A stretch of DNA of 64,000 nt from Sulfuricella sp. (lineage in GTDB: Bacteria; Pseudomonadota; Gammaproteobacteria; Burkholderiales; Sulfuricellaceae). Numbering within the stretch: position 1 is the stretch's first letter; every line of letters begins with the position of its first letter. Below are positions 1,700 through 17,557 of this stretch, one piece after another. The notes below the pieces were generated by a model. The model was not told where the DNA came from, made no database searches, and saw only the letters and a program-made list of their open reading frames with translations. The position numbers were made by a program, and so were the translations under genes. The DNA is taken from contig JASJPA010000001.1 of NCBI GenBank assembly GCA_031426955.1, positions 18,152 through 82,151 on the forward strand, written 5' to 3'.

Positions 1700-3276
1700 C
1701 TTCGGTGAGGGGTGAAGTGTCAGGGGTGAGGAGCGGCGTGGCAGCTTCCTTCATCGCTGCTCAACTGGGCGCAGAGGTGAAGCATCTGGCTGTCGATAGC
1801 CGGCAAGTCCGGCAGGGAGATACCTTCGTCGCCTGTCCAGGCGAAAGGCAGGATGGGCGCAAGTTCATCGCACAGGCCATTGCCGCCGGCGCCAACGCGG
1901 TGCTGTGGGAGCGCGAGGGTTTCGAGTGGAATGCCGAGTGGGAAGTGCCGAATCTTCCCGTCGATGGCTTGCGCGACAAAGTCGGCGAGATTGCCAGCCA
2001 GGTTTACGGCGAGCCGTCGCGCCAGTTGCGGACGATCGGCATCACCGGCACCAACGGCAAGACTTCGTGCTGCCACTGGATTGCCCAATGCCTGACCGAA
2101 CTGGGCAGAAAAACCGCCATGGTCGGCACGCTCGGCAACGGTTTTCCCGGTACGCTGGCGCCTGCCGCCAACACCACGCCGGATGCGGTCAGCCTGCATG
2201 CGCTATTGCGCGACTACCTGGCTGAGGACGCAAAATGTGTGGCGATGGAAGTGTCGTCCCACGGTCTGGCGCAGGGCCGGGTCAACGGCGTGCATTTTGA
2301 CATCGCCGTGCTCACCAACCTGTCGCGCGACCATCTGGATTACCACGGCGACATGGCGTCCTACGCTGCCGCCAAGGCCGGCCTGTTCGCGTGGCCGGAG
2401 CTGCAATACGCGGTGCTCAACATGGATGACCCGTTCGGCGTTGAACTGGCCGGCAAGCTGGGTTGCAGCGGCGTGCAGACGGTGGGCTACAGCGTCGAAG
2501 GAAGCGCCCCTCACCTCAATCCTCTCCCGCAAGCGGGAGAGGAGGCAAACGTAAAAGGCGCTTGTTTCGATCGTTGCCGGTTTGCCGTTCTGGCGCGCGA
2601 TCTGGTGACGGACGCTGAAGGCATCCGCTTCAAGGCGGTAACGCCATGGGGGACGGCACAGCTGAGCAGCAAGTTGCTCGGCCGCTTCAACGCTTCCAAC
2701 CTGCTGGCAGCGCTGGCGGTACTGCTGGTGAGCGGCATCGCACTGGAAGACGCGGTGCGCGAACTGGGCAAGGTTGAATCGGTTGCGGGCCGCATGCAGC
2801 GCCTGGGCGGCGAGGGCAAGCCGCTGGTGGTGGTGGACTACGCCCACACCCCGGATGCGCTGGAAAAGGTGCTCGGAACTTTGCGCGAAATCATGGGCGA
2901 CAAAAGCAGGTTGATCTGCGTATTCGGCTGCGGCGGCGAACGCGACCGCGGCAAGCGCCCGCTGATGGGAGCGGCGGCGTCGCGCCTGGCGGACAGCGTG
3001 ATCGTGACCAGCGACAACCCGCGCGGCGAGGATGCCCACGCCATCATCGACGAAATCATCGCCGGCATGGGCGCCAACTACCATGTGATCGATGACCGCG
3101 CTGCCGCCATAGACGCCGCGGTGCGCGGGGCGCAGCCGGATGACGTGGTGCTGATCGCCGGCAAGGGTCACGAGGATTACCAGGAAATCAAGGGCGTGAA
3201 ATGGCCCTTTGCCGATGCCGCTGTGGCACAACGAATTTTGTCCCAAATCGGGATTCCGACTTTAGCTATGCGCTGA
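1696..3276 (+). CDS. murE: UDP-MurNAc-tripeptide synthetase; start at ATG 1696 or GTG 1738
   Basis: ITGTNGKTS P-loop, VDYAHTPD and DNPR motifs; ATGA overlap with ftsI stop. Confidence 0.96.
   Translation: MTSVRGEVSGVRSGVAASFIAAQLGAEVKHLAVDSRQVRQGDTFVACPGERQDGRKFIAQAIAAGANAVLWEREGFEWNAEWEVPNLPVDGLRDKVGEIASQVYGEPSRQLRTIGITGTNGKTSCCHWIAQCLTELGRKTAMVGTLGNGFPGTLAPAANTTPDAVSLHALLRDYLAEDAKCVAMEVSSHGLAQGRVNGVHFDIAVLTNLSRDHLDYHGDMASYAAAKAGLFAWPELQYAVLNMDDPFGVELAGKLGCSGVQTVGYSVEGSAPHLNPLPQAGEEANVKGACFDRCRFAVLARDLVTDAEGIRFKAVTPWGTAQLSSKLLGRFNASNLLAALAVLLVSGIALEDAVRELGKVESVAGRMQRLGGEGKPLVVVDYAHTPDALEKVLGTLREIMGDKSRLICVFGCGGERDRGKRPLMGAAASRLADSVIVTSDNPRGEDAHAIIDEIIAGMGANYHVIDDRAAAIDAAVRGAQPDDVVLIAGKGHEDYQEIKGVKWPFADAAVAQRILSQIGIPTLAMR
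1705..1733 (+). repeat. Four degenerate GTGAGGR heptamers at the murE 5' end
   Basis: gtgaggg gtgaagt gtcaggg gtgagga; same unit as at 8429 and 12068. Confidence 0.75.
2496..2569. repeat. CCTCTCCC-type palindromic element inserted in frame in murE
   Basis: Perfect 10-bp stem CCTCTCCCGC-aa-GCGGGAGAGG (2521-2542) inside an imperfect 13-bp outer stem (2496-2508/2557-2569). Confidence 0.85.
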
Positions 3277-3310: not shown

Positions 3311-4687
3311 ATGTTAAGCCTGAGTGCAGCAGCCAAGGCCCTGAACGCTGAAACCAGCGGTGCGGACGTGACGTTCTCCGGCGTCACCACCGACAGCCGT
3401 GCGGTGGCGGCCGGCGATTTGTTCGTGGCGCTGAAGGGCGAACGTTTCGATGGGCACAATTACGTCAAGCAGGTGATGGAACAGGGCGCAGCCGCAGCAC
3501 TGGTGGAGCGGCGCGACCCGGCCTGGGGCGATTTCCCGCTGCTGGTTGTCAAGGATGCGCGCCTTGCTCTGGGTGAACTGGCCGGTTACTGGCGCAGCCG
3601 CTTCACCATTCCCGTGGTGGCGCTCACCGGCAGCAGCGGCAAGACCACGGTGAAGGAAATGATCGCAGCGATCCTGCGGGCTCAGACCGGCGTGGCCGAT
3701 CAGGTGCTCGCGACCAAGGGCAACCTCAACAACGACATCGGCATGCCGCTGACGCTGCTCGGATTGCGCGACACCCATCGCTACGCCGTGATCGAGATGG
3801 GCATGAACCATCCGGGCGAGATCGCGTATCTGTCCAGGATCGCCAGGCCCGATGTGGCGCTGATCATCAATGCCCAGGCCGCCCATCTGGCGGGTTTGGG
3901 CACGGTGGAGGCGGTGGCTCGTGCCAAGGGCGAGATTTTCCAGGGCCTGGCCGCCAACGGTACCGCCGTGATCAACGCCGACGACCCTCATGCGGCACTG
4001 TGGCAGGAACTGGCGGGGGCTCATCCCATCATCCGCTTCGGCCTCGAGCAGCAGGCAGAAGTGTCGGCCAGCTTCAAATTGCAGCCCTTCGGCAGTGCAA
4101 TCGAGGTGGTCACTCCCGCCGGTAAATTTGCTGTCGCCTTGCCGGTACCGGGCGAGCACAACGTGCGCAACGCCCTGGCGGCCACTGCCGTGGCTCAGGC
4201 TCTGGGTGTCGACAACGCAACCGTCGCCGCGGGGCTGGCAAAGGTTTCCAGCGTCAAGGGCCGGCTGCTGAAAAATCCCTGCCTGCACGGCGCCACCATG
4301 ATCGACGATACCTACAACGCCAACCCCGGCTCGGTACGGGCGGCGATCGCCGTGCTCGCCGGCATGCCGGGCAAGAAGGTGCTGGTGCTCGGCGACATGG
4401 GCGAACTGGGCGAAAACGCACGCGCGCTGCATGCCGAAATCGGCGCGGCGGCGAAGGCGGCCGGGATCGACCTGCTGTTCACCCTGGGCGATCTGAGCGC
4501 CGCTGCTGCGCAGGCTTTCGGCGAGGGCGGACGGCATTTCGAATATATCGAGGACCTGCTGCACGATATCGAAAACCTGCTGGCGCCGGATGTGACGGTA
4601 CTGGTGAAGGGGTCGCGTTTCATGCAGATGGAGCGGGTAGTGAAAAGTTTCGAGCTGAAGGGGGATTCGACATGCTGCTCGCACTGA
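3311..4687 (+). CDS. murF: UDP-MurNAc-pentapeptide synthetase
   Basis: [23 protein letters not shown] and GDMGELG motifs. Confidence 0.97.
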
Positions 4688-5844: not shown

Positions 5845-5868
5845 ATGGCTTTCGACGTTGAAATTGAG

Positions 5869-7257
5869 ATGAGCTTGAACCTCGAACATAAAAAAGTGCT
5901 GGTGGTGGGGCTGGGCGACACCGGCCTCTCCATGGCGCGCTGGCTGGACGCGAGAGGCGCGGTCGTGGCTGTCGCCGACTCGCGCGACAACCCGCCCCAC
6001 GCCGCACGCCTTCAGGCTGAACTGCCTGGCGTGCCGCTATTCACCGGCAAGCTCAGGGAAGAAGTCTTCCGCAATGCCGACCTGCTCGCGGTCAGTCCGG
6101 GCGTTTCCCTGCGCGAACCGGCCGTTGCCGATGCGCTGGCGCACGGCGTGGAAGTGGTCGGGGATGTCGAGCTGTTTGCTCAGGCACTCAGGACTCAGGA
6201 CTTGGAACTCCGGACTCGGGTTCTGGCCATTACCGGCTCCAATGGCAAGAGCACGGTGACCGAGATGGTCGGTGCGATGTGCAAGAAGGCCGGCCTGCAT
6301 ACGGTCGTGGCGGGAAATATCGGCCTGCCGGTGCTGGATGCATTGGGCGATCTGGATCAGCGCGGCGAGACCGCCGACGTGTTCGTTATCGAACTCTCCA
6401 GTTTCCAGCTGGAAACCACGCACACCCTGAACCCGGCTGCAGCGACCGTGCTCAACGTGACCGAAGACCACATGGACCGCTACAACGGCATGGAGGATTA
6501 CGCCGCGGCCAAAGAGCGCATTTTTGCCGGCAACGGCATTCAGGTGCTGAACCGGGAAGACCGCTACAGCTTGGCGATGGCGAAGCCCGATCGCAGGGTG
6601 ATGACGTTTGGCCTGGATGCGCCACAAAAACCCGAGGACTGGGGTTTGCTGGACGACGAGAACGGCCCGTGGCTGTCGCAGGGCGGAAATCGGCTGATGC
6701 CGTTAGCCGATCTGCCGCTTGCCGGCTTGCACAACGCGGCCAATGCGCTGGCCGCTCTGGCCTTGTGCCGCGCCATCGACCTGCCGCTCCAGCCCCTGAT
6801 CGAGGCGCTGCGCGAATTCAAGGGCTTGCCGCACCGGGTGGAGAAAGTGGCGGAGATTAATGGGGTGACCTTCTATGACGATTCCAAGGGAACCAACGTA
6901 GGAGCCACGGTGGCGGCGCTCAACGGCATGCCGTGCAAAGTGGTGCTGATTGCCGGCGGCGATGGCAAGGGCCAGGATTTCGGCCCGCTAGCACCGGCAG
7001 TGTCTGCCCATGCCCGAGCCGTCGTGCTGATCGGCCGCGATGGCCCAATAATCGGTGCGGCCCTGGCCGGCTGTGGCGTGCCCCTTCTCTCTGCTGCGAA
7101 TATGGAGGAGGCGGTGATCCTGGGATTCGAGCAGGCCCAGCCGGGTGACGCGGTGCTGCTGTCGCCGGCCTGCGCCAGTTTCGACATGTTCCGCAACTAC
7201 GAACATCGCGCCCAGGTATTTATCGCCGCAGTCAAAAAACTGGAGGAGGAAGCATGA
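5869..7257 (+). CDS. murD: UDP-MurNAc-L-Ala:D-Glu ligase; likely start ATG 5869
   Basis: [26 protein letters not shown] and SPACASFD motifs. Confidence 0.97.
6186..6220 (+). repeat. Five ACTCAGG-like heptamers inside murD
   Basis: actcagg actcagg acttgga actccgg actcggg, read as TQDLELRTR just before the P-loop strand. Confidence 0.7.
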
Positions 7258-8417
7258 ATTCCTATTCTCCGGTAGCCGCCCAGCACGCCAGACCCGACTA
7301 CGACCGCACCCTGCTGTGGCTGGTGATCCTGCTGCTCGGTTTCGGGCTGGTGATGGTGTATTCCTCCTCGATCGCCATCGCCGCAGCGAGCAAACACACC
7401 GGTTTCCAGGAAAGCTATTACCTGGTGCGGCAGGCAGTTTTCCTCGGCGTCGGTGCCTTGTTCGGCCTGTTTGCCTTCCAGGTGCCGAACAAGGTGTTGC
7501 AGGAAACCGCGCCCTATTTGTTCCTTTCCGGCCTGGTGCTGCTGGTGCTGGTGCTGATTCCCGGCATCGGTCGCGAGGTCAACGGCAGCCAGCGCTGGCT
7601 GTCACTGGTGGTGATCAATCTGCAGCCGTCCGAGTTCATGAAGCTGTTCGCGGTGCTCTACGCCGCCGATTACACGGTGCGCAAGGCGGCTTACATGGAC
7701 AACATCAAGAAGGGCTTCCTGCCGATGTTCATGGTGATGCTGCTGGTCGGCGGCCTGCTGCTGCGGGAACCGGATTTCGGCGCCTTCGCCGTGATCACCA
7801 GCATCGCCATGGCGATACTGTTCCTCGGCGGCATGAACTGGCGGCTGTTCGCCGGCCTCATCGCCATGCTGCTGGTGGGCTTCCTGGTGCTGATCTGGAC
7901 CTCGCCCTACCGCATGCAGCGCATTATCGGATTCATGGATCCCTGGGCCGACCCCTACGGCAAGGGCTACCAGCTTTCCCACGCGCTGATCGCCTTCGGC
8001 CGCGGCGAATGGTACGGAGTCGGTCTGGGCGCGAGCGTCGAAAAACTGTTCTATCTGCCGGAAGCGCACACCGACTTCCTGCTCGCAGTGATCGCCGAAG
8101 AGCTCGGGTTTGCCGGTGTCGCCGTGGTGCTCCTGCTGTTCGTCTGGCTGACCGTCCGCGCTTTCTCCATCGGCCGCCAGGCGGCCGGGATCGACCGCCA
8201 TTTTGCCGCACTGGTGGCCTACGGAATCGGCATCTGGCTGGCGGTGCAGGCGATCATCAACATGGGCGTGAACATGGGCCTGTTGCCGACCAAGGGCCTG
8301 ACCCTGCCCTTGCTGTCATTCGGCGGCAGCGGAATTGCCGCCAACTGCACTGCGATAGGGGTGCTGCTGCGGGTGGACTGGGAGAACCGGCAGGTGATGA
8401 AGGGGTACTCGGTATGA
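7254..8417 (+). CDS. ftsW: SEDS-family peptidoglycan polymerase
   Basis: Multi-TM; [15 protein letters not shown] and SFGGS motifs. Confidence 0.97.
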
Positions 8418-9619
8418 GTCATGAAGAAGTGAGGAGTGAGGGGTTAGGGGTGAGGAGTAAAACCTCCCACCGCGCCGCCTTTGACTCTACTCCTCACTCC
8501 TCACGCCTCACTCCTCACGGGGTTTCACGCACCATCCTCATCATGGCGGGCGGCACCGGCGGGCACGTGTTCCCGGCCCTGGCCGTGGCGGATTATCTGA
8601 AAGGGCGCGACTGGAACGTGGTGTGGCTGGGCACCCGTGCCGGCATGGAAGCGCGGCTGGTGCCGGAAAAGGGTTACGAAATGGCCTGGGTCAAGTTCGC
8701 CGGCATGCGCGGCAAGGGCGTGTTGCGCTGGGCGGCGCTGCCGCTCATGCTGCTGCTGGCGATGTGGCAGAGTGCGGCGGCGATATTCCGCATCCGCCCC
8801 GATGTGGTGCTCGGCATGGGCGGCTTCACGGCTTTCCCCGGCGGCCTGATGGCTTCCCTGCTGGCCAAGCCCCTGGTGATCCACGAGCAGAACTCAGTGG
8901 CCGGTCTGACCAACCGGGTGCTGGCCTGCCTCGCCGATCGTATCATGGTGGGCTTCCCGTCGGCCTTCAACAACCCCGGCGACAAGCCGATCGGCTGCCG
9001 CAAACCGGCTTTTGACTGGTGCGGCAATCCAGTGCGCGCCGATATCGCCGCCCTGCCTGCTCCTGAACAACGGATGGCCGGTCGTCAGGGCAAGCTGCGC
9101 CTGCTGGTGGTTGGCGGCAGCCTGGGTGCTGCGGCGTTGAACGATGCGGTGCCGCAGGCGCTGGCGCTGATTGCAGAAGCCGACCGTCCCGAGGTGATCC
9201 ATCAGTCCGGCGCCAGGAACCTGGAAAAGCTCAGTGCCAACTATGCCGCTGCCGGTGTCGCCGCCGACGCCCGCGCCTTCATCGACGACATGGCTCAGAT
9301 GTATGCCTGGTGCGACGTGATCGTGTGCCGGGCGGGAGCGCTGACCCTGGCCGAAGTGACTGCCGCCGGTGTGGCCAGCGTGCTGGTGCCTTACCCGCAC
9401 GCGGTGGACGACCACCAAACCGGCAACGCCCGCTTCCTGAGCGAGAACGGCGCGGCGGTGCTGCTGCCGCAGACCGAATTGAACGCGGAAAAACTGGCGG
9501 AACTGCTGCATGGTTTTACCCGCGAGAAGTTGCTGGCGATGGCGCAGGCGGCGAAAAAATTGGCCAAGCCAGAAGCCACGGCGGACGTGGCGAGGGTGTG
9601 CATGGAGCTGGCGAAATGA
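8414..9619 (+). CDS. murG: Lipid II GlcNAc transferase with a repeat-derived N-terminal insertion
   Basis: AGGTGGH, HEQN and DDHQTGNA motifs; ATGA overlap with ftsW stop. Confidence 0.96.
8429..8518. repeat. Heptamer-built inverted repeat (31-bp arms) inside the murG 5' coding region
   Basis: Left arm 8429-8459 gtgaggagtgaggggttaggggtgaggagta; right arm 8488-8518 tactcctcactcctcacgcctcactcctcac. Confidence 0.92.
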
Positions 9620-9630
9620 ATATTTATTTG

Positions 9631-9735
9631 AACCGCAGAGGCGCAGAGACGCAGAGAAACGCAAAAACAAATGCAAGGGCTCTGCGTATGCAAAGGAATT
9701 CTTGGTTTTCTCCGCGTCTCTGCGCCTCTGCGGTT
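9631..9735. repeat. CGCAGAGR octamer-built inverted repeat between murG and murC
   Basis: 29-bp arms at 9631-9659 and 9707-9735 with one mismatch. Confidence 0.92.
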
Positions 9736-9749
9736 AAGGGTTTAAAAAC

Positions 9750-11138
9750 ATGAAACACAAAGTCAAACACGTCCATTTCGTAGGCATCGGCGGCGTCGGC
9801 ATGAGCGGTATCGCCGAGGTGCTGCTCAACCTGGGTTACGAAGTAAGCGGTTCCGATCTGGGCGACAACGTCGCCACGCGTCGGCTGAAGAGTCTGGGCG
9901 CCCAGGTGTATCAGGGCCACGCCGCCAGCAATCTGGAGCGCGCCGATGTGGTGGTGATCTCCACCGCGGTCCAGGCCGACAACCCGGAAGTGGCGGCAGC
10001 GCGGGAGCGCAACATCCCGGTGGTGCCGCGCGCCATGATGCTGGCGGAGCTGATGCGCTTCAAGCAAGGCATTGCGGTGGCCGGCACCCACGGCAAGACC
10101 ACGACCACCAGCCTGATCGCCAGCATCCTCGGCGAGGCGGGCATGGACCCGACTTTCGTTATCGGTGGCAAGCTGGAGGCGGCCGGCGCCAATGCGCGGC
10201 TGGGCCAAGGCGAATTCATCGTCGCCGAGGCGGACGAGTCCGATGCCTCCTTCCTCTACCTGACTCCGGTGATGGCGGTGGTGACCAATATCGATGCCGA
10301 TCACATGGAAACCTACGGCCACGATTTCGGCCGGCTGAAGCAGGCCTTCGTCGATTTCATCCAGCGCCTGCCGTTCTACGGCATGGCGGTGCTGTGCGCC
10401 GACGATGCCAACGTGCGCGAGATCATGCCGCGCATCACCAAGCAGGTAACCACCTACGGCGTGTCAGAATCGGCGCAGGTGCGCGCGACCGACATCAGCC
10501 ATTGCGGTGGCCAGATGTGCTTCAAGGTGCAGCGCGCCGGCCAGCCGGAACTGGCGGTCACGCTCAATTTTCCCGGCCAGCACAACGTACTGAATGCGCT
10601 GGCGGCGATTGCGGTGGCGATGGAAGTGGGCGCGCCGGATGCCGCCATCGTCAAGGGATTGGCCGAATTCCGCGGCGTCGGCCGGCGTTTCGAACGGTAT
10701 GGCGAGGTTTTCCTGCCGAGCGGCGGCAGCTTCACCCTGATTGACGATTACGGTCACCACCCGGTGGAAATGGCGGCAACACTGGCGGCGGCGCGCGGTG
10801 CCTTTCCCGGCCGGCGGCTGGTGTTGGCATTCCAGCCGCACCGTTACACCCGTACTCGCGATTTGTTCGAGGATTTCGTCAAGGTGCTGTCTACCGTCGA
10901 CGCCCTGCTGCTGACCGAAGTCTACCCGGCCGGCGAAGCGCCGATCGTGGCCGCAGACGGCAGAGCATTGGCGCGTGCCATCCGGGTGGCGGGCAAGGTC
11001 GAGCCGATTTTCCTGGAGTCCGCGGTGGAACTGCCGCAGGCAATCATGAATGCGGTACGGGACGGCGATGTGGTGCTGACCATGGGCGCCGGGTCGATCG
11101 GCCAGGTGCCGGCAAAGCTGGTGAAGGGTGATGAGTGA
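9750..11138 (+). CDS. murC: UDP-MurNAc:L-Ala ligase
   Basis: [25 protein letters not shown] and DDYGHHP motifs. Confidence 0.98.
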
Positions 11139-11141
11139 TGA
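11121..11141 (+). repeat. Heptamer remnant (gtgaagg gtgatga gtgatga) forming the murC 3' end and stop
   Basis: Three tandem heptamers encode VKGDE and the TGA at 11136-11138. Confidence 0.55.
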
Positions 11142-11151
11142 GGGCAAAGGC

Positions 11152-12099
11152 ATGAACAGTGCGCTAATGCACGAATCCCGACAACTGCGCGGCGAGTTGC
11201 GCCGCAACGAGCCGATGAGCAAGCACACCAGCTGGCGCGTCGGCGGGCCGGCCGAGCGCTTTTACATTCCGGCGGATATCGCCGATTTGTCGCAGTTTTT
11301 GCAGGGGCTGGCGGCTGACGAGCCGGTGCACTTCATCGGCCTGGGCAGCAATTTGCTGGTGCGCGATGGCGGGGTACGCGGCACGGTGGTGCTTCTGCAC
11401 GGTGCGCTCAACCAGATCACGCTTACTCACGGAAAGCCGGGCGCGCCGGCCGGTGTTTACGCCGAAGCGGGTGTGGCCAGTCCCAAGGTGGCGCGATTTG
11501 CAGCCTTGAACGGTTTCGAAGGCGCCGAGTTTCTTGCCGGCATTCCCGGCACGGTGGGTGGTGCGCTGGCGATGAACGCCGGCTGCTACGGCGCCGAAAC
11601 CTGGCAATACGTGACCGAGGTGCTGACCATCGACAGTTTCGGCGAGTTGCGCCGCCGTACGCCGCAGGATTACGACATCGGCTACCGTCACGTGGCGCTC
11701 AAGGCGGGGAGCGGCAGCGAGTGGTTCGTCGCCGCCTGGTTCGCCTTCAGGCCCGGCAACGGTGAGGTTTCGCGGAAGAAGATCAAGGGCTTGCTGGAAA
11801 AGCGGGTGGCGAGCCAGCCGATCGGCACGCCCAATGCCGGCTCGGTGTTCCGCAATCCTCCCGGCGACCATGCGGCGCGACTGATCGAGGCGTGCGGCCT
11901 GAAGGGAACGACGATCGGCGGGGCGATGGTGTCGCCCAAGCATGCCAATTTCATCGTCAACGCCGGCGGAGCCACGGCAGCGGACATCGAGGCGCTGATC
12001 GCCAGGGTGCGGCAAACGGTCAAGGAACAGCACGGCGTGGAACTGGTGACGGAAGTAAGAGTAATCGGTGAGAAGTTAGGAGTAAGGAGTGAGGAGTAA
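11152..12099 (+). CDS. murB: UDP-N-acetylenolpyruvoylglucosamine reductase; start uncertain
   Basis: [26 protein letters not shown] and HANFIVN motifs. Confidence 0.96.
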
Positions 12100-12196
12100 A
12101 GGCATGCCAGGTGAAATCGACAATATGTTGACTGAGAAAGACGCGAGTGGAGAAATCGGGGTTTTTACCCCTCACTCCTCACCCCTCACTCCTCAC
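12068..12196. repeat. Heptamer-built inverted repeat (33-bp arms) straddling the murB stop and ddl start
   Basis: Left arm 12068-12100 and right arm 12164-12196 with 5 mismatches. Confidence 0.9.
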
Positions 12197-13102
12197 GTCT
12201 TTGGCAAGGTCGCGGTGCTGCTGGGCGGAAAATCCGCCGAGCGCGAGGTGTCGCTGAAGAGCGGCAATGCGGTGCTGGCGGCGCTCAAGCGCAGCGGTGT
12301 GGATGCGCACCCGTTCGATCCGGCCGAGCGGGAGCTGGGCGAGCTGAAGCGGGAGGGCTACCAGCGCGTCTTTATCGCCCTGCACGGCGGCCAGGGCGAA
12401 GACGGCACGGTGCAGGGCGCGCTGGCCCTGCTGGGTATTCCTTATACCGGCAGCGGCGTGCTGGCGTCTGCCCTGGCGATGGACAAATGGCGCAGCAAGC
12501 TGGTGTGGCAGGCGGCAGGGCTGCCGGTTCCCGCCTACGAGCTGCTCGATGCCGGCAGCGATTTTGCGGCGGTCGCCGCGCGCCTCGGCTTGCCGCTGTT
12601 CGTCAAGCCGGCCAACGAAGGCTCCAGCGTCGGCATCAGCAAGGTGAAGGCGGTTGAAGACCTGCGTGCCGCTTACGAGCTGGCGGCGCGTTACGACGAC
12701 CTGGTGATTGCCGAACAGTTCGTCGGTGGCGGCGAATACACCGCTGCGATTCTCGGCAATGATGCGCTGCCGGTGATCAAGATCGAGCCGGCCAACGAGT
12801 TCTACGATTACGAGGCGAAATACCTGCGCGACGACACCCGCTACCTTTGCCCGTGTGGGCTGTCAGCGGAACAGGAGAGCGAAATCCAGCGCCTGGCAAA
12901 ACGGGGCTATGCCGTGATCGGCGGCGCTGGCTGGGGGAGGGTGGATTTCCTGCTCGATGCGGCGGGCAAGCCGTACCTGCTGGAAGCCAACACCTCGCCC
13001 GGTATGACCGACCATAGCCTGGTGCCGATGGCGGCGCGGGCAGCGGGTTTGAGCTTTGAAGATTTGGTGATCAAGGTTCTTGAACTGGCTAGCGTGGAAT
13101 GA
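12104..13102 (+). CDS. ddlB: D-alanine--D-alanine ligase with a repeat-derived N-terminal extension; start ATG 12104 or 12125
   Basis: [24 protein letters not shown] and EANTSPGMT motifs. Confidence 0.96.
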
Positions 13103-16534: not shown

Positions 16535-16642
16535 AATAGCAGCATCTGCAGGGTGTCGGTTTCGGTGCGAGAGTTGGCCTGCCACGCTCGCCGTGCTAAA
16601 CTGCCGGCCTCTGACAACACCATGATGCTCATGGGAAATTTC

Positions 16643-17557
16643 GTGATTAGACAGCGGACACTGAAAAATATCATACGCGCCACTGGGGTGGGGCTGCATA
16701 CCGGCGAGAAGGTGTACCTCACCTTGCGTCCGGCCGCAGTCGACACCGGCATCGTGTTTCGTCGCGTCGATCTGGCTGAACCTGTGGAGATCAAGGCGGA
16801 GCCGTTCAGTGTCGGCGAAACCCGGCTGTCCTCGACGCTGGTGCGGGATGGCGTCAAAGTGTCCACCGTCGAGCATCTGATGTCTGCCTTTGCCGGCCTG
16901 GGTATCGACAATGCCTATGTCGACCTGTCCGCGCCGGAAGTGCCGATCATGGACGGCAGCGCCTCGCCCTTCGTGTTTCTGCTGCAGTCCGCCGGCATCG
17001 AAGAGCAGTCGGCGCCGAAGAAATTCATCCGCGTCAAAAAACCGGTGGAGGTCAGGGACGGCGACAAATGGGTGCGCTTCGATCCGCACCCGGGCTTCCG
17101 GGTGAAGCTCACCATCGCTTTCGATCACCCGGTATTGTCCAATTCCGGCCAGTCCGTCACGGTGGATTTTGCCGACACTTCCTTCATCAAGGAAATTGCC
17201 CGTGCCCGCACCTTCGGCTTCATGCACGAGGTGGAGGCAATGCGCTCGCAGGGCCTGGCGCTGGGCGGCAGCCTCGACAACGCGATCGTGATGGACGAGT
17301 TTCGCGTGCTCAACAGCGATGGCTTGCGCTACGAGGATGAGTTCGTCAAGCACAAGGTGCTGGATGCCATCGGCGATCTTTATCTGCTCGGCCACCCGCT
17401 GATCGGTGCATTTACCGGCTACAAGTCCGGACATGCCATGAATAACCGCCTGTTGCGCTGCCTGATGGCGGATGCCGAGGCGTGGGAATTCGTCAGTTTC
17501 GAGCGCCAGGAAGATGCGCCGGCCGCCTTGCTGCGGTTGAACAGCCTGGCAGCCTGA
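16643..17557 (+). CDS. lpxC: UDP-3-O-acyl-GlcNAc deacetylase; likely GTG start
   Basis: RQRTLK N-terminus, TVEHLMSA and HKVLDAIGD zinc motifs. Confidence 0.97.

Follow-up and report, generated by a model that had tools for sequence, protein, structure and literature searches.

We analysed a 64,000-nucleotide (nt) stretch of DNA from Sulfuricella sp. (contig JASJPA010000001.1, positions 18,152 to 82,151; here called the window) and found a long inverted repeat of tandem heptamers inserted in frame at the very start of the essential gene murG. The window covers the cell division and cell wall (dcw) cluster of a betaproteobacterium close to Sulfuricella, and its MurG finds its closest match in Sulfuricella denitrificans skB26 (94% identity). 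The element is a real, inherited case of a repeat absorbed into a gene. We consider it probable that this heptamer palindrome is translated in the murG frame, that the resulting tail is a by-product, and that the stem-loop in the messenger RNA (mRNA) would adjust the output of ftsW relative to that of murG.

An in-frame hairpin at the start of murG

The murG start codon is coupled to the ftsW stop, which overlaps it as ATGA, and in the list of open reading frames (ORFs) the frame from ATG 8414 reads through the inverted repeat exactly as an earlier note on this DNA had claimed. That note had also described a 31-bp stem 15 nt after the start. This agrees with what we found, namely two arms of 31 nt each, 90% complementary and 28 nt apart (Table 1), with the stem starting 15 nt from the A of the murG ATG and 11 nt past the ftsW stop. 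Each arm consists of four tandem heptamers and a partial unit, giving the design (GTGAGGN)4, loop, (NCCTCAC)4. Tandem Repeats Finder (TRF) reported a period of 7 with 4.4 copies at 8428-8458 and 4.3 copies at 8489-8518, and the heptamer motif GTGAGGAGTGAGG (at most two mismatches) occurs 20 times in the window versus 1.35 expected. The RNA of positions 8400-8550 folded with -66 kcal/mol (z = -4.0; 0/200 shuffles were as stable). The stem itself contributes about -55 to -60 kcal/mol, in a pairing register that is ambiguous owing to the tandem units. An assembly artefact was ruled out, as independently assembled contigs from two runs, spanning 8256-8562 (depth ~1090) and 8270-8561 (depth ~930), match the window at every base. 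S. denitrificans skB26 carries an element of identical type at the same murG position.

We compared the window with loci of relatives, which are designated by L numbers (L001 is S. denitrificans and L207 is a Sulfuricella metagenome-assembled genome, MAG). Among 120 MurG homologues, the common N-terminus is that of a protein of 365 amino acids (aa) without the extension. The empty site, ATGAGC/CGCACC (the slash marks the insertion point; allele sequence ATGAGCCGCACC), is found in L123, L124 and L125, where it reads ggtATGAGC/CGCACCATCCTGATCATG, the protein begins MSRTILIM and MurG is 88-94% identical. The filled site in the window reads ATGAGT...TCACGCACC. Joints in metagenome contigs run from 8418 to 8528, with a single C between, and from 8418 to 8531. 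Because close relatives carry the empty site without the extension, the window has a net in-frame insertion of 108 nt, placed between codon 2 and the former codon 3 of murG. The earlier note had proposed an insertion of about 35 aa, and this proposal survived the alignment: the insertion amounts to 36 codons, relatives without the repeat have no extension, and no repeat-free orthologue has the same one. The comparison of filled and empty sites revealed no target-site duplication, and no flanking direct repeat explains the empty site.

All 12 orthologous filled sites, 93-132 nt long from the ATG to the AGGTGGH motif, are in frame and fold with -38 to -63 kcal/mol. At loci found via the MurG core, arrays without a later start are likewise all in frame (window, L001, L122/L126, L131, L134); the arrays of L154, L178 and L183 are out of frame, and a new start codon lies downstream of or inside them. 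The element is dispensable in principle, since close relatives are without it, and insertions have hit the ftsW/murG junction repeatedly, which makes it a hotspot.

Translation most likely begins at ATG 8414 and continues across the hairpin, which would give MurG a low-complexity, disordered tail of 36 residues. Apart from this tail, the MurG fold is normal. Read-through is the best reading because there is no canonical start between the stem and strand beta1 of the Rossmann fold, because an expected TGA is TTA, and because residues 1-35 are predicted to be disordered. Specifically, no ATG, GTG or TTG occurs between 8451 and 8542, and ATG 8543 falls within the beta1 codons; a start there would remove this strand (T40-M44). 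A perfect (GTGAGGN)n array has a TGA in every frame, once per 21 nt, and the murG frame is open through the left arm because one unit is altered. This is unit 3, the sole unit whose TGA would fall in the murG frame. In 9/9 murG orthologues it reads GTTAGG or GTCAGG (codon TTA or TCA), and the opposite arm never has a compensating change. At other loci, 40 of 57 long open frames entering a GTGAGGN-type arm end inside it, and read-through of an arm (>100 aa) was found in the murG orthologues and in two other hairpins only, among the loci examined.

The protein model points the same way. AlphaFold2 (40-sequence alignment) predicted the MurG core confidently and gave residues 1-35 a predicted local distance difference test (pLDDT) score below 50, and the E. 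coli MurG structure (PDB 1F0K) aligns to the MurG of the window from residue 36 only. The NCBI annotation of the S. denitrificans orthologue also has 401 aa. Finally, ATG 8414 with its stop overlap and Shine-Dalgarno motif is intact and kept in all orthologues. The putative Shine-Dalgarno motif is AAGGGG in the ftsW 3' end, and the same arrangement is present in empty-site relatives.

Table 1. The murG element, its flanks and its sister arrays (positions in the window)
Feature	Position	Strand	Remarks
ftsW	7254..8417	+	ORF list; stop TGA 8415-8417 overlaps the murG start as ATGA; Pfam FTSW_RODA_SPOVE on the L001 orthologue
AAGGGG, Shine-Dalgarno-like	8400..8405	+	8 nt upstream of ATG 8414, within the ftsW 3' end; read from the sequence
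murG	8414..9619	+	401 codons including the extension; ATG 8414 is the ancestral coupled start codon
Spacer	8417..8428	+	between the ftsW stop and the stem base
Inserted segment	8419..8527	+	a single C in its place in empty-site alleles; net gain 108 nt = 36 codons (H3-S38)
Left (G-rich) arm	8429..8459	+	GTGAGGA GTGAGGG GTTAGGG GTGAGGA GTA
Codon TTA (L11), unit 3 of left arm	8444..8446	+	T is an unpaired mismatch in the stem (sequence and fold)
Loop AAAACCTCCCACCGCGCCGCCTTTGACTC	8460..8487	+	encodes 10 residues
Right (C-rich) arm	8488..8518	+	TAC TCCTCAC TCCTCAC GCCTCAC TCCTCAC; open in 3/3 frames on the + strand
MurG strand beta1 of the Rossmann fold, codons T40-M44 (TILIM)	8531..8545	+	AlphaFold2 strand at residues 40-44; alignment to 1F0K
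murE half-array, G-type units only	1705..1732	+	in frame after murE ATG 1696, which overlaps the ftsI stop
murD heptamer array (CTCAGGA, ~5 copies)	6179..6217	+	in frame, linker before the ITGSNGKST loop; TRF
murB-ddl sister full hairpin	12068..12196	+	same element in L001 and L207

Apparent constraint on the nucleotides and a proposed role of the stem-loop

Synonymous and nonsynonymous counts made by eye over the 11 loop codons were too small, and we used a test of variability by codon position instead. The test set comprised six orthologues with the same loop type (window, L001, L209, L210, L205, L206), and the part of the element tested was the first 84 nt of murG (spacer, left arm and loop). 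Variable sites at codon positions 1, 2 and 3 came to 32, 29 and 32% in the element versus 20, 10 and 70% in the MurG core. Third positions were less variable in the element than in the core (p = 1e-4), under half as variable, and positions 1 and 2 were more variable (p = 0.007). Since variation in the element is spread evenly over the three codon positions, the constraint appears to act on the nucleotides and not on the peptide. Likewise, the amino-acid sequence of the tail lacks the kind of conservation expected of a protein, and we therefore read the tail as a by-product that is tolerated. Two layers of selection can thus probably be separated, one keeping the frame open and the other conserving the nucleotide sequence while the peptide drifts.

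The loop and the spacer were compared in the same way. A 33-nt block with the loop differs by 0-18% among the six orthologues, versus 20-53% at 4-fold sites, and the window and S. denitrificans have an identical loop despite differing at 26% of their 4-fold sites. The spacer is 15 nt long in 8/9 orthologues and 18 nt in one, and its peptide varies (HEE, EPQ, KGVQ). Contig depth suggested ~3-4 copies of the element at >=80% identity in this genome, including one full-length paralogue. This paralogue has a different loop, so the conserved loop is not due to copy-to-copy homogenisation.

In the role we favour, a ribosome positioned over the ftsW stop and murG start would have the stem-loop right at its downstream edge. 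Initiation would not be occluded, because the stem begins only at the leading edge of the ribosome. A terminating or re-initiating ribosome would abut the stem, which would slow termination and re-initiation, and the first elongating ribosomes would have to melt about -55 kcal/mol of stem, which would slow early elongation. The hairpin might also block 3'-5' decay of the mRNA, and its cleavage by RNase III, which the earlier note had raised together with a throttling of translation, is possible. The net outcome would be a tuned relative output of ftsW versus murG. By analogy with known hairpins, the element may thus modulate ftsW/murG output or mRNA decay. In E. coli, ribosomes are reported to stall and the upstream gene to be translated less where hairpins of repetitive extragenic palindromic (REP) elements lie <=15 nt from a stop codon (summarised in bioRxiv 10.1101/2024.07.17.603846), and it has been proposed that stem-loops early in coding sequences offer the 30S subunit a 'starting block' (PMC7769764).

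Several points weigh against this reading. We infer both the read-through and any regulatory effect, and any function is modulatory at most, because relatives live without the element. A start at the in-frame GTG 8429 or 8450 within the left arm is a minor alternative. The conservation signal comes from six related sequences only. In addition, L207 and L122, which are nearer to the window in the flanking genes, have diverged loops with indels, so the constraint is not uniform or recombination has occurred; the strong, uniform constraint that one might read from how little the window and S. denitrificans differ is tempered accordingly. The selected form could also be DNA as well as RNA, since the plus and minus strands of the element fold equally well (strand-specific wobble test, G-U versus A-C) and the two forms are not separable on this basis.

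The main rival is a functionless passenger, selfish or neutral, that landed or expanded at a permissive spot and whose apparent conservation results from recombination, gene conversion or the small sample. We regard this as possible but rather unlikely. Some close relatives have the element and others lack it, it belongs to a family dispersed over many intergenic sites, and the ftsW/murG, ftsI/murE and murB/ddl junctions carry different repeats in different lineages, all of which a passenger would explain, as it would the fast divergence of the L207 and L122 loops. However, a passenger would hardly have third positions so much less variable than those of the core, a loop left identical across the divergence from S. 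denitrificans, or a spacer whose length is kept while its sequence changes. The other loop of the same-genome paralogue and the few detectable copies also speak against it.

A bolder reading makes the hairpin a selected cis-acting device, not a passenger, that sets the FtsW:MurG ratio, and makes the arrays broadly frame-independent 'punctuation' modules. Here terminating ribosomes would be hindered as they are by REPs near stops, the stem would serve as the starting block for re-initiation, and every passing ribosome would melt and translate the hairpin. GTGAGGN arrays contain TGA in three frames, and GGAG followed by GTG 6 nt on in three frames; the opposite arm is open in all. Such modules could colonise translationally coupled junctions and leave the operon unbroken. 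We think it doubtful that the hairpin goes this far.

It is improbable that the hairpin is an untranslated spacer, with MurG starting after it at ATG 8543 or at a non-canonical ATC (8534 or 8540). Some gene callers do start relatives at MAGGTGGH or MIMAGG (both calls occur on one contig), GGGG or GGAG lies directly 3' of the right arm, and the element lacks a codon-position pattern. However, the 8543 start deletes beta1, no conventional start codon is available past the stem, and every orthologue keeps the frame open even though the repeat unit bears TGA. Lineages with out-of-frame arrays gained a new start and Shine-Dalgarno motif, whereas the lineage of the window did not, and relatives with half-elements have no other start.

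A start inside the left arm, at either of its in-frame GTG codons, is very improbable; it would shorten the tail by 5-12 residues and let the repeat supply the ribosome-binding site. Both GTGs have GAGG-type motifs of earlier units ahead of them, and tandem GTGAGGA units put GGAG 6 nt ahead of the next-but-one GTG. In L154 the sole in-frame start is a GTG within such an array, and the ddl ATG uses the left-arm GAGGAG of its own hairpin as a Shine-Dalgarno motif. In murG, however, the two GTGs are buried in a stem of about -55 kcal/mol, and the ancestral ATG is kept intact with its Shine-Dalgarno motif and stop overlap in all orthologues.

There is also only a slight chance that the selected form is DNA, as a cruciform or G-quadruplex (G4) acting on replication, supercoiling or transcription, which has been proposed for G-rich heptamer repeats: the equal folding of both strands, the GGGG tracts in the left arm and the G4 formed by (GGGAATC)4-type oligonucleotides, with their bias to four units (Rehm et al., PMC4692102), would fit it, but runs of >=3 G occur in just 2/4 left-arm units, the complementary arm 28 nt away favours duplex, and our scan showed no promoter- or terminator-like site in or next to the element.

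Sister arrays and known repeat classes

The murG element has sister copies at three other places in the dcw cluster. At murE, the half-array (MTSVRGEVSGVRSG...) has GTCAGGG as unit 3, in which the in-frame TGA is replaced by TCA. The same array is present in L001 and L203, GTCAGCN-type arrays are present in L122 and L123, and L125 is empty. At the murD site, L204 has CACTCAG units and L134 has GTCAGGC units, and the array is absent or short in L127 and L131. The full hairpin at murB-ddl contains the murB stop TAA (12097-12099) in its left arm, where the in-frame unit has TTA, not TGA, and the ddl ATG 12104 in its loop, 7 nt after GAGGAG. Its right arm is in the ddl frame, and the Ddl N-terminus thereby carries a tail of ~31 residues including PHSSPLTPH; more distant relatives have a plain ATGA overlap at this junction. 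S. denitrificans shares the murE, murG and ddl copies. In other lineages, dcw junctions carry other unit types or repeat families, or are empty. These sister copies, the junction hotspot, the frame-opening unit and the nucleotide-level conservation go beyond the earlier note.

Other repeats were seen in and around the same cluster. The murG-murC spacer (9631-9735) holds an octamer palindrome (CGCAGAGA x3 / CTCTGCGC x3) with 37-nt arms that are 89% complementary; in S. denitrificans, murG and murC overlap. Related hairpins of the CGCAGAGG type lie at the murB-ddl junction of L123, L125 and L131. In L207, a GTGAGG-type hairpin (5859-5929) interrupts murB, and the gene is annotated in two parts (278 aa and 89 aa); this split may be a real disruption or frameshift, or an assembly error. 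Just after ftsZ, positions 16577-16715, within the predicted lpxC ORF (16553..17557), gave a sub-threshold Rfam match to the proteobacterial sRNA Xoo8 (29 bits versus a gathering score of 90, E = 5e-5).

The ftsW/murG spot also carries inserts of other kinds. An unrelated element of ~80-150 nt follows the ftsW stop in L209 (697-800) and also in L133, L146, L151 and L188; its core reads ...tttcagtgRaggctaac...gccggaactaaaa... and has no match in Rfam. After this insert, the final ~24 nt of ftsW, with Shine-Dalgarno motif and ATGA, are repeated, and murG therefore keeps a coupled-looking start. In L140 (~8005-8170) and L175 (~1316-1460), an insert of ~100 nt is flanked on both sides by the initial ~45 nt of murG, with a new start codon ahead of the second murG copy. 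This looks like another insertion type at the same spot.

Hairpins of the form (GTGAGGN)2-8, a loop of 13-90 nt and (NCCTCAC)2-8 are found in many betaproteobacterial genomes and in other phyla, typically between co-oriented genes. A pattern scan of genome contigs, with Sulfuricella genomes not among them, gave >=120 loci across many phyla, and the G-rich arm was 5' in 55/55 collected hairpins (the search pattern was written for that order). In-frame read-through was also seen in other proteins: at 5972-6037 of L102, a hybrid kinase from Nitrospirota has such a copy in a loop of its receiver domain (LRSKELGVRSEE...LRLTPHSPS). Heptamer arrays are read in frame in the linker of a planctomycete reductase-like protein (L099, 7227-7320, minus strand), within a UvrA-like protein (L088, ~4540-4590) and at the NadD N-terminus of a Thiobacillus MAG (L041, ~860-910).

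The Rfam search of the element returned nothing above threshold, with sub-threshold matches to generic microRNA hairpin models only, and the promoter and terminator scan of 7200-12400 found no site in or beside the element. An intrinsic terminator or attenuator was rejected; the stem is followed by GGGGTTTCACGC, with no U run and no scan match. Four metatranscriptomes contained distant relatives only and gave no usable RNA ends or joints at the element. In the sediment metatranscriptome run X24, positions 8472-8533 reached ~1000x contig depth, on the C-rich arm only, which is therefore attributed to abundant TCCTCAC-array transcripts from other loci or organisms.

The element is an inverted pair of tandem G-rich heptamer arrays, REP-like but of the heptameric simple-repeat-pair class. 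The closest comparison is with the G-rich heptamer repeats of Xanthomonas and Nostoc, (GGGAATC)n / (GGGANTN)n and GGGGA(C/T)T (Rehm et al. 2015, PMC4692102). In Xanthomonas, ~40% of the repeats occur as convergent pairs and ~90% are intergenic between aligned ORFs; they are transcribed and biased to four units, and only 7-11% overlap ORFs, translated copies not having been analysed there (PMC4692102). Sister species often share the Xanthomonas and Nostoc repeats at a given locus, and no known transposase is linked to these repeats. The element resembles them in its 7-nt G-rich tandem units, its ~4 units per array (2-8 in the wider family), its convergent, G-first arrays able to form a stem-loop, and its place close to an upstream stop between co-oriented ORFs, yet inside the downstream one. 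It differs in its unit, GTGAGGN, which has a TGA in each copy and short G runs; the units do not match the GGGANTN consensus with its uninterrupted, G4-competent tract of >=3 G, since just two of the four have such a run. Its host is a betaproteobacterium, and the copy lies wholly inside an essential ORF and is probably translated.

The earlier note had compared the element with Rickettsia palindromic elements (RPEs), which holds as an analogy but not as a class assignment, the arms being inverted heptamer arrays instead. RPEs are palindromes of ~100-150 bp found in frame in unrelated housekeeping genes, where the fold tolerates the peptide (reviewed in PMC10969869). The murG copy is likewise an in-frame palindrome at a fold-tolerated site, an insertion of 36 codons placed before beta1. 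In contrast, RPEs form Rickettsia-specific families, each reported to encode a conserved peptide, whereas the murG element has tandem-heptamer arms, no codon-position pattern, and positions 1 and 2 more variable than the core, so that no conserved peptide was found. Its insertion at the extreme N-terminus, on a start/stop overlap, is a further difference, and the likeness is one of analogy only.

With REP elements, bacterial interspersed mosaic elements (BIMEs) and REP doublets (REPINs), the element shares short palindromes inside operons, and REP stem-loops stabilise the upstream mRNA. Intragenic REPs are known, and a GTAG/CGTC tag serves as a criterion (PMC3733652). A REP unit is itself an imperfect palindrome of 20-40 bp, and a REPIN consists of two of these inverted. 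Each arm of the murG element, in contrast, is a purine- or pyrimidine-rich tandem array without internal complementarity that cannot fold on itself, which rules out a pair of REP hairpins. No terminal GTAG/CGTC tag was found: the outer ends are GTGAGG and CCTCAC, and the sole CTAC is located where the right arm meets the loop. RAYT-mobilised REPs and REPINs also go with high copy numbers and a cognate RAYT transposase gene in the genome, compared with the few copies detectable here by contig depth. A GTAG-tagged REP/REPIN was rejected on the grounds of the arms and the missing tag.

Correia hairpins, the model for the RNase III site suggested in the earlier note, are cut by RNase III, enterobacterial repetitive intergenic consensus (ERIC) elements modulate RNase E decay, and hairpins of the REP and Correia type undergo processing or serve as barriers to decay (PMC10969869). 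Like Correia/nemis and ERIC MITEs (miniature transposable elements with inverted repeats), the element is a long hairpin in an mRNA co-transcribed with genes; unlike them, it has no target-site duplication and no known parent transposon. A clear MITE was rejected for want of the duplication. In Beggiatoaceae, direct TAACTGA heptamer repeats lie within a few nt of start codons, including those of essential genes, and translational control has been proposed for them (MacGregor 2015, PMC4679880). They too are tandem heptamers clustered near start codons; however, their unit is another one, and they are direct only, mostly upstream of the start, without inverted pairs.

Implications of the murG alleles

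The case is a variation on two kinds of element already on record, pairs of heptameric repeats and palindromes inserted in frame. Such heptamer pairs abound in several phyla of bacteria, and we know of no function established for them. Rickettsia provides the best-known examples of repeats that are translated within genes.

The interest of the locus comes chiefly from its natural alleles with and without the element, which allow testing. It is unusually testable in that the same essential gene occurs in both forms with MurG 88-94% identical, and in that S. denitrificans skB26, which carries the element, is in culture and has been sequenced completely. For annotation, N-terminal extensions of this kind should stay untrimmed, and these lineages can be expected to have repeat-derived tails on MurE, MurG, Ddl and other proteins. 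Should the hairpin indeed tune expression over the start/stop overlap, it would represent a simple, widespread way to set protein ratios in the cell-division and cell-wall operon.

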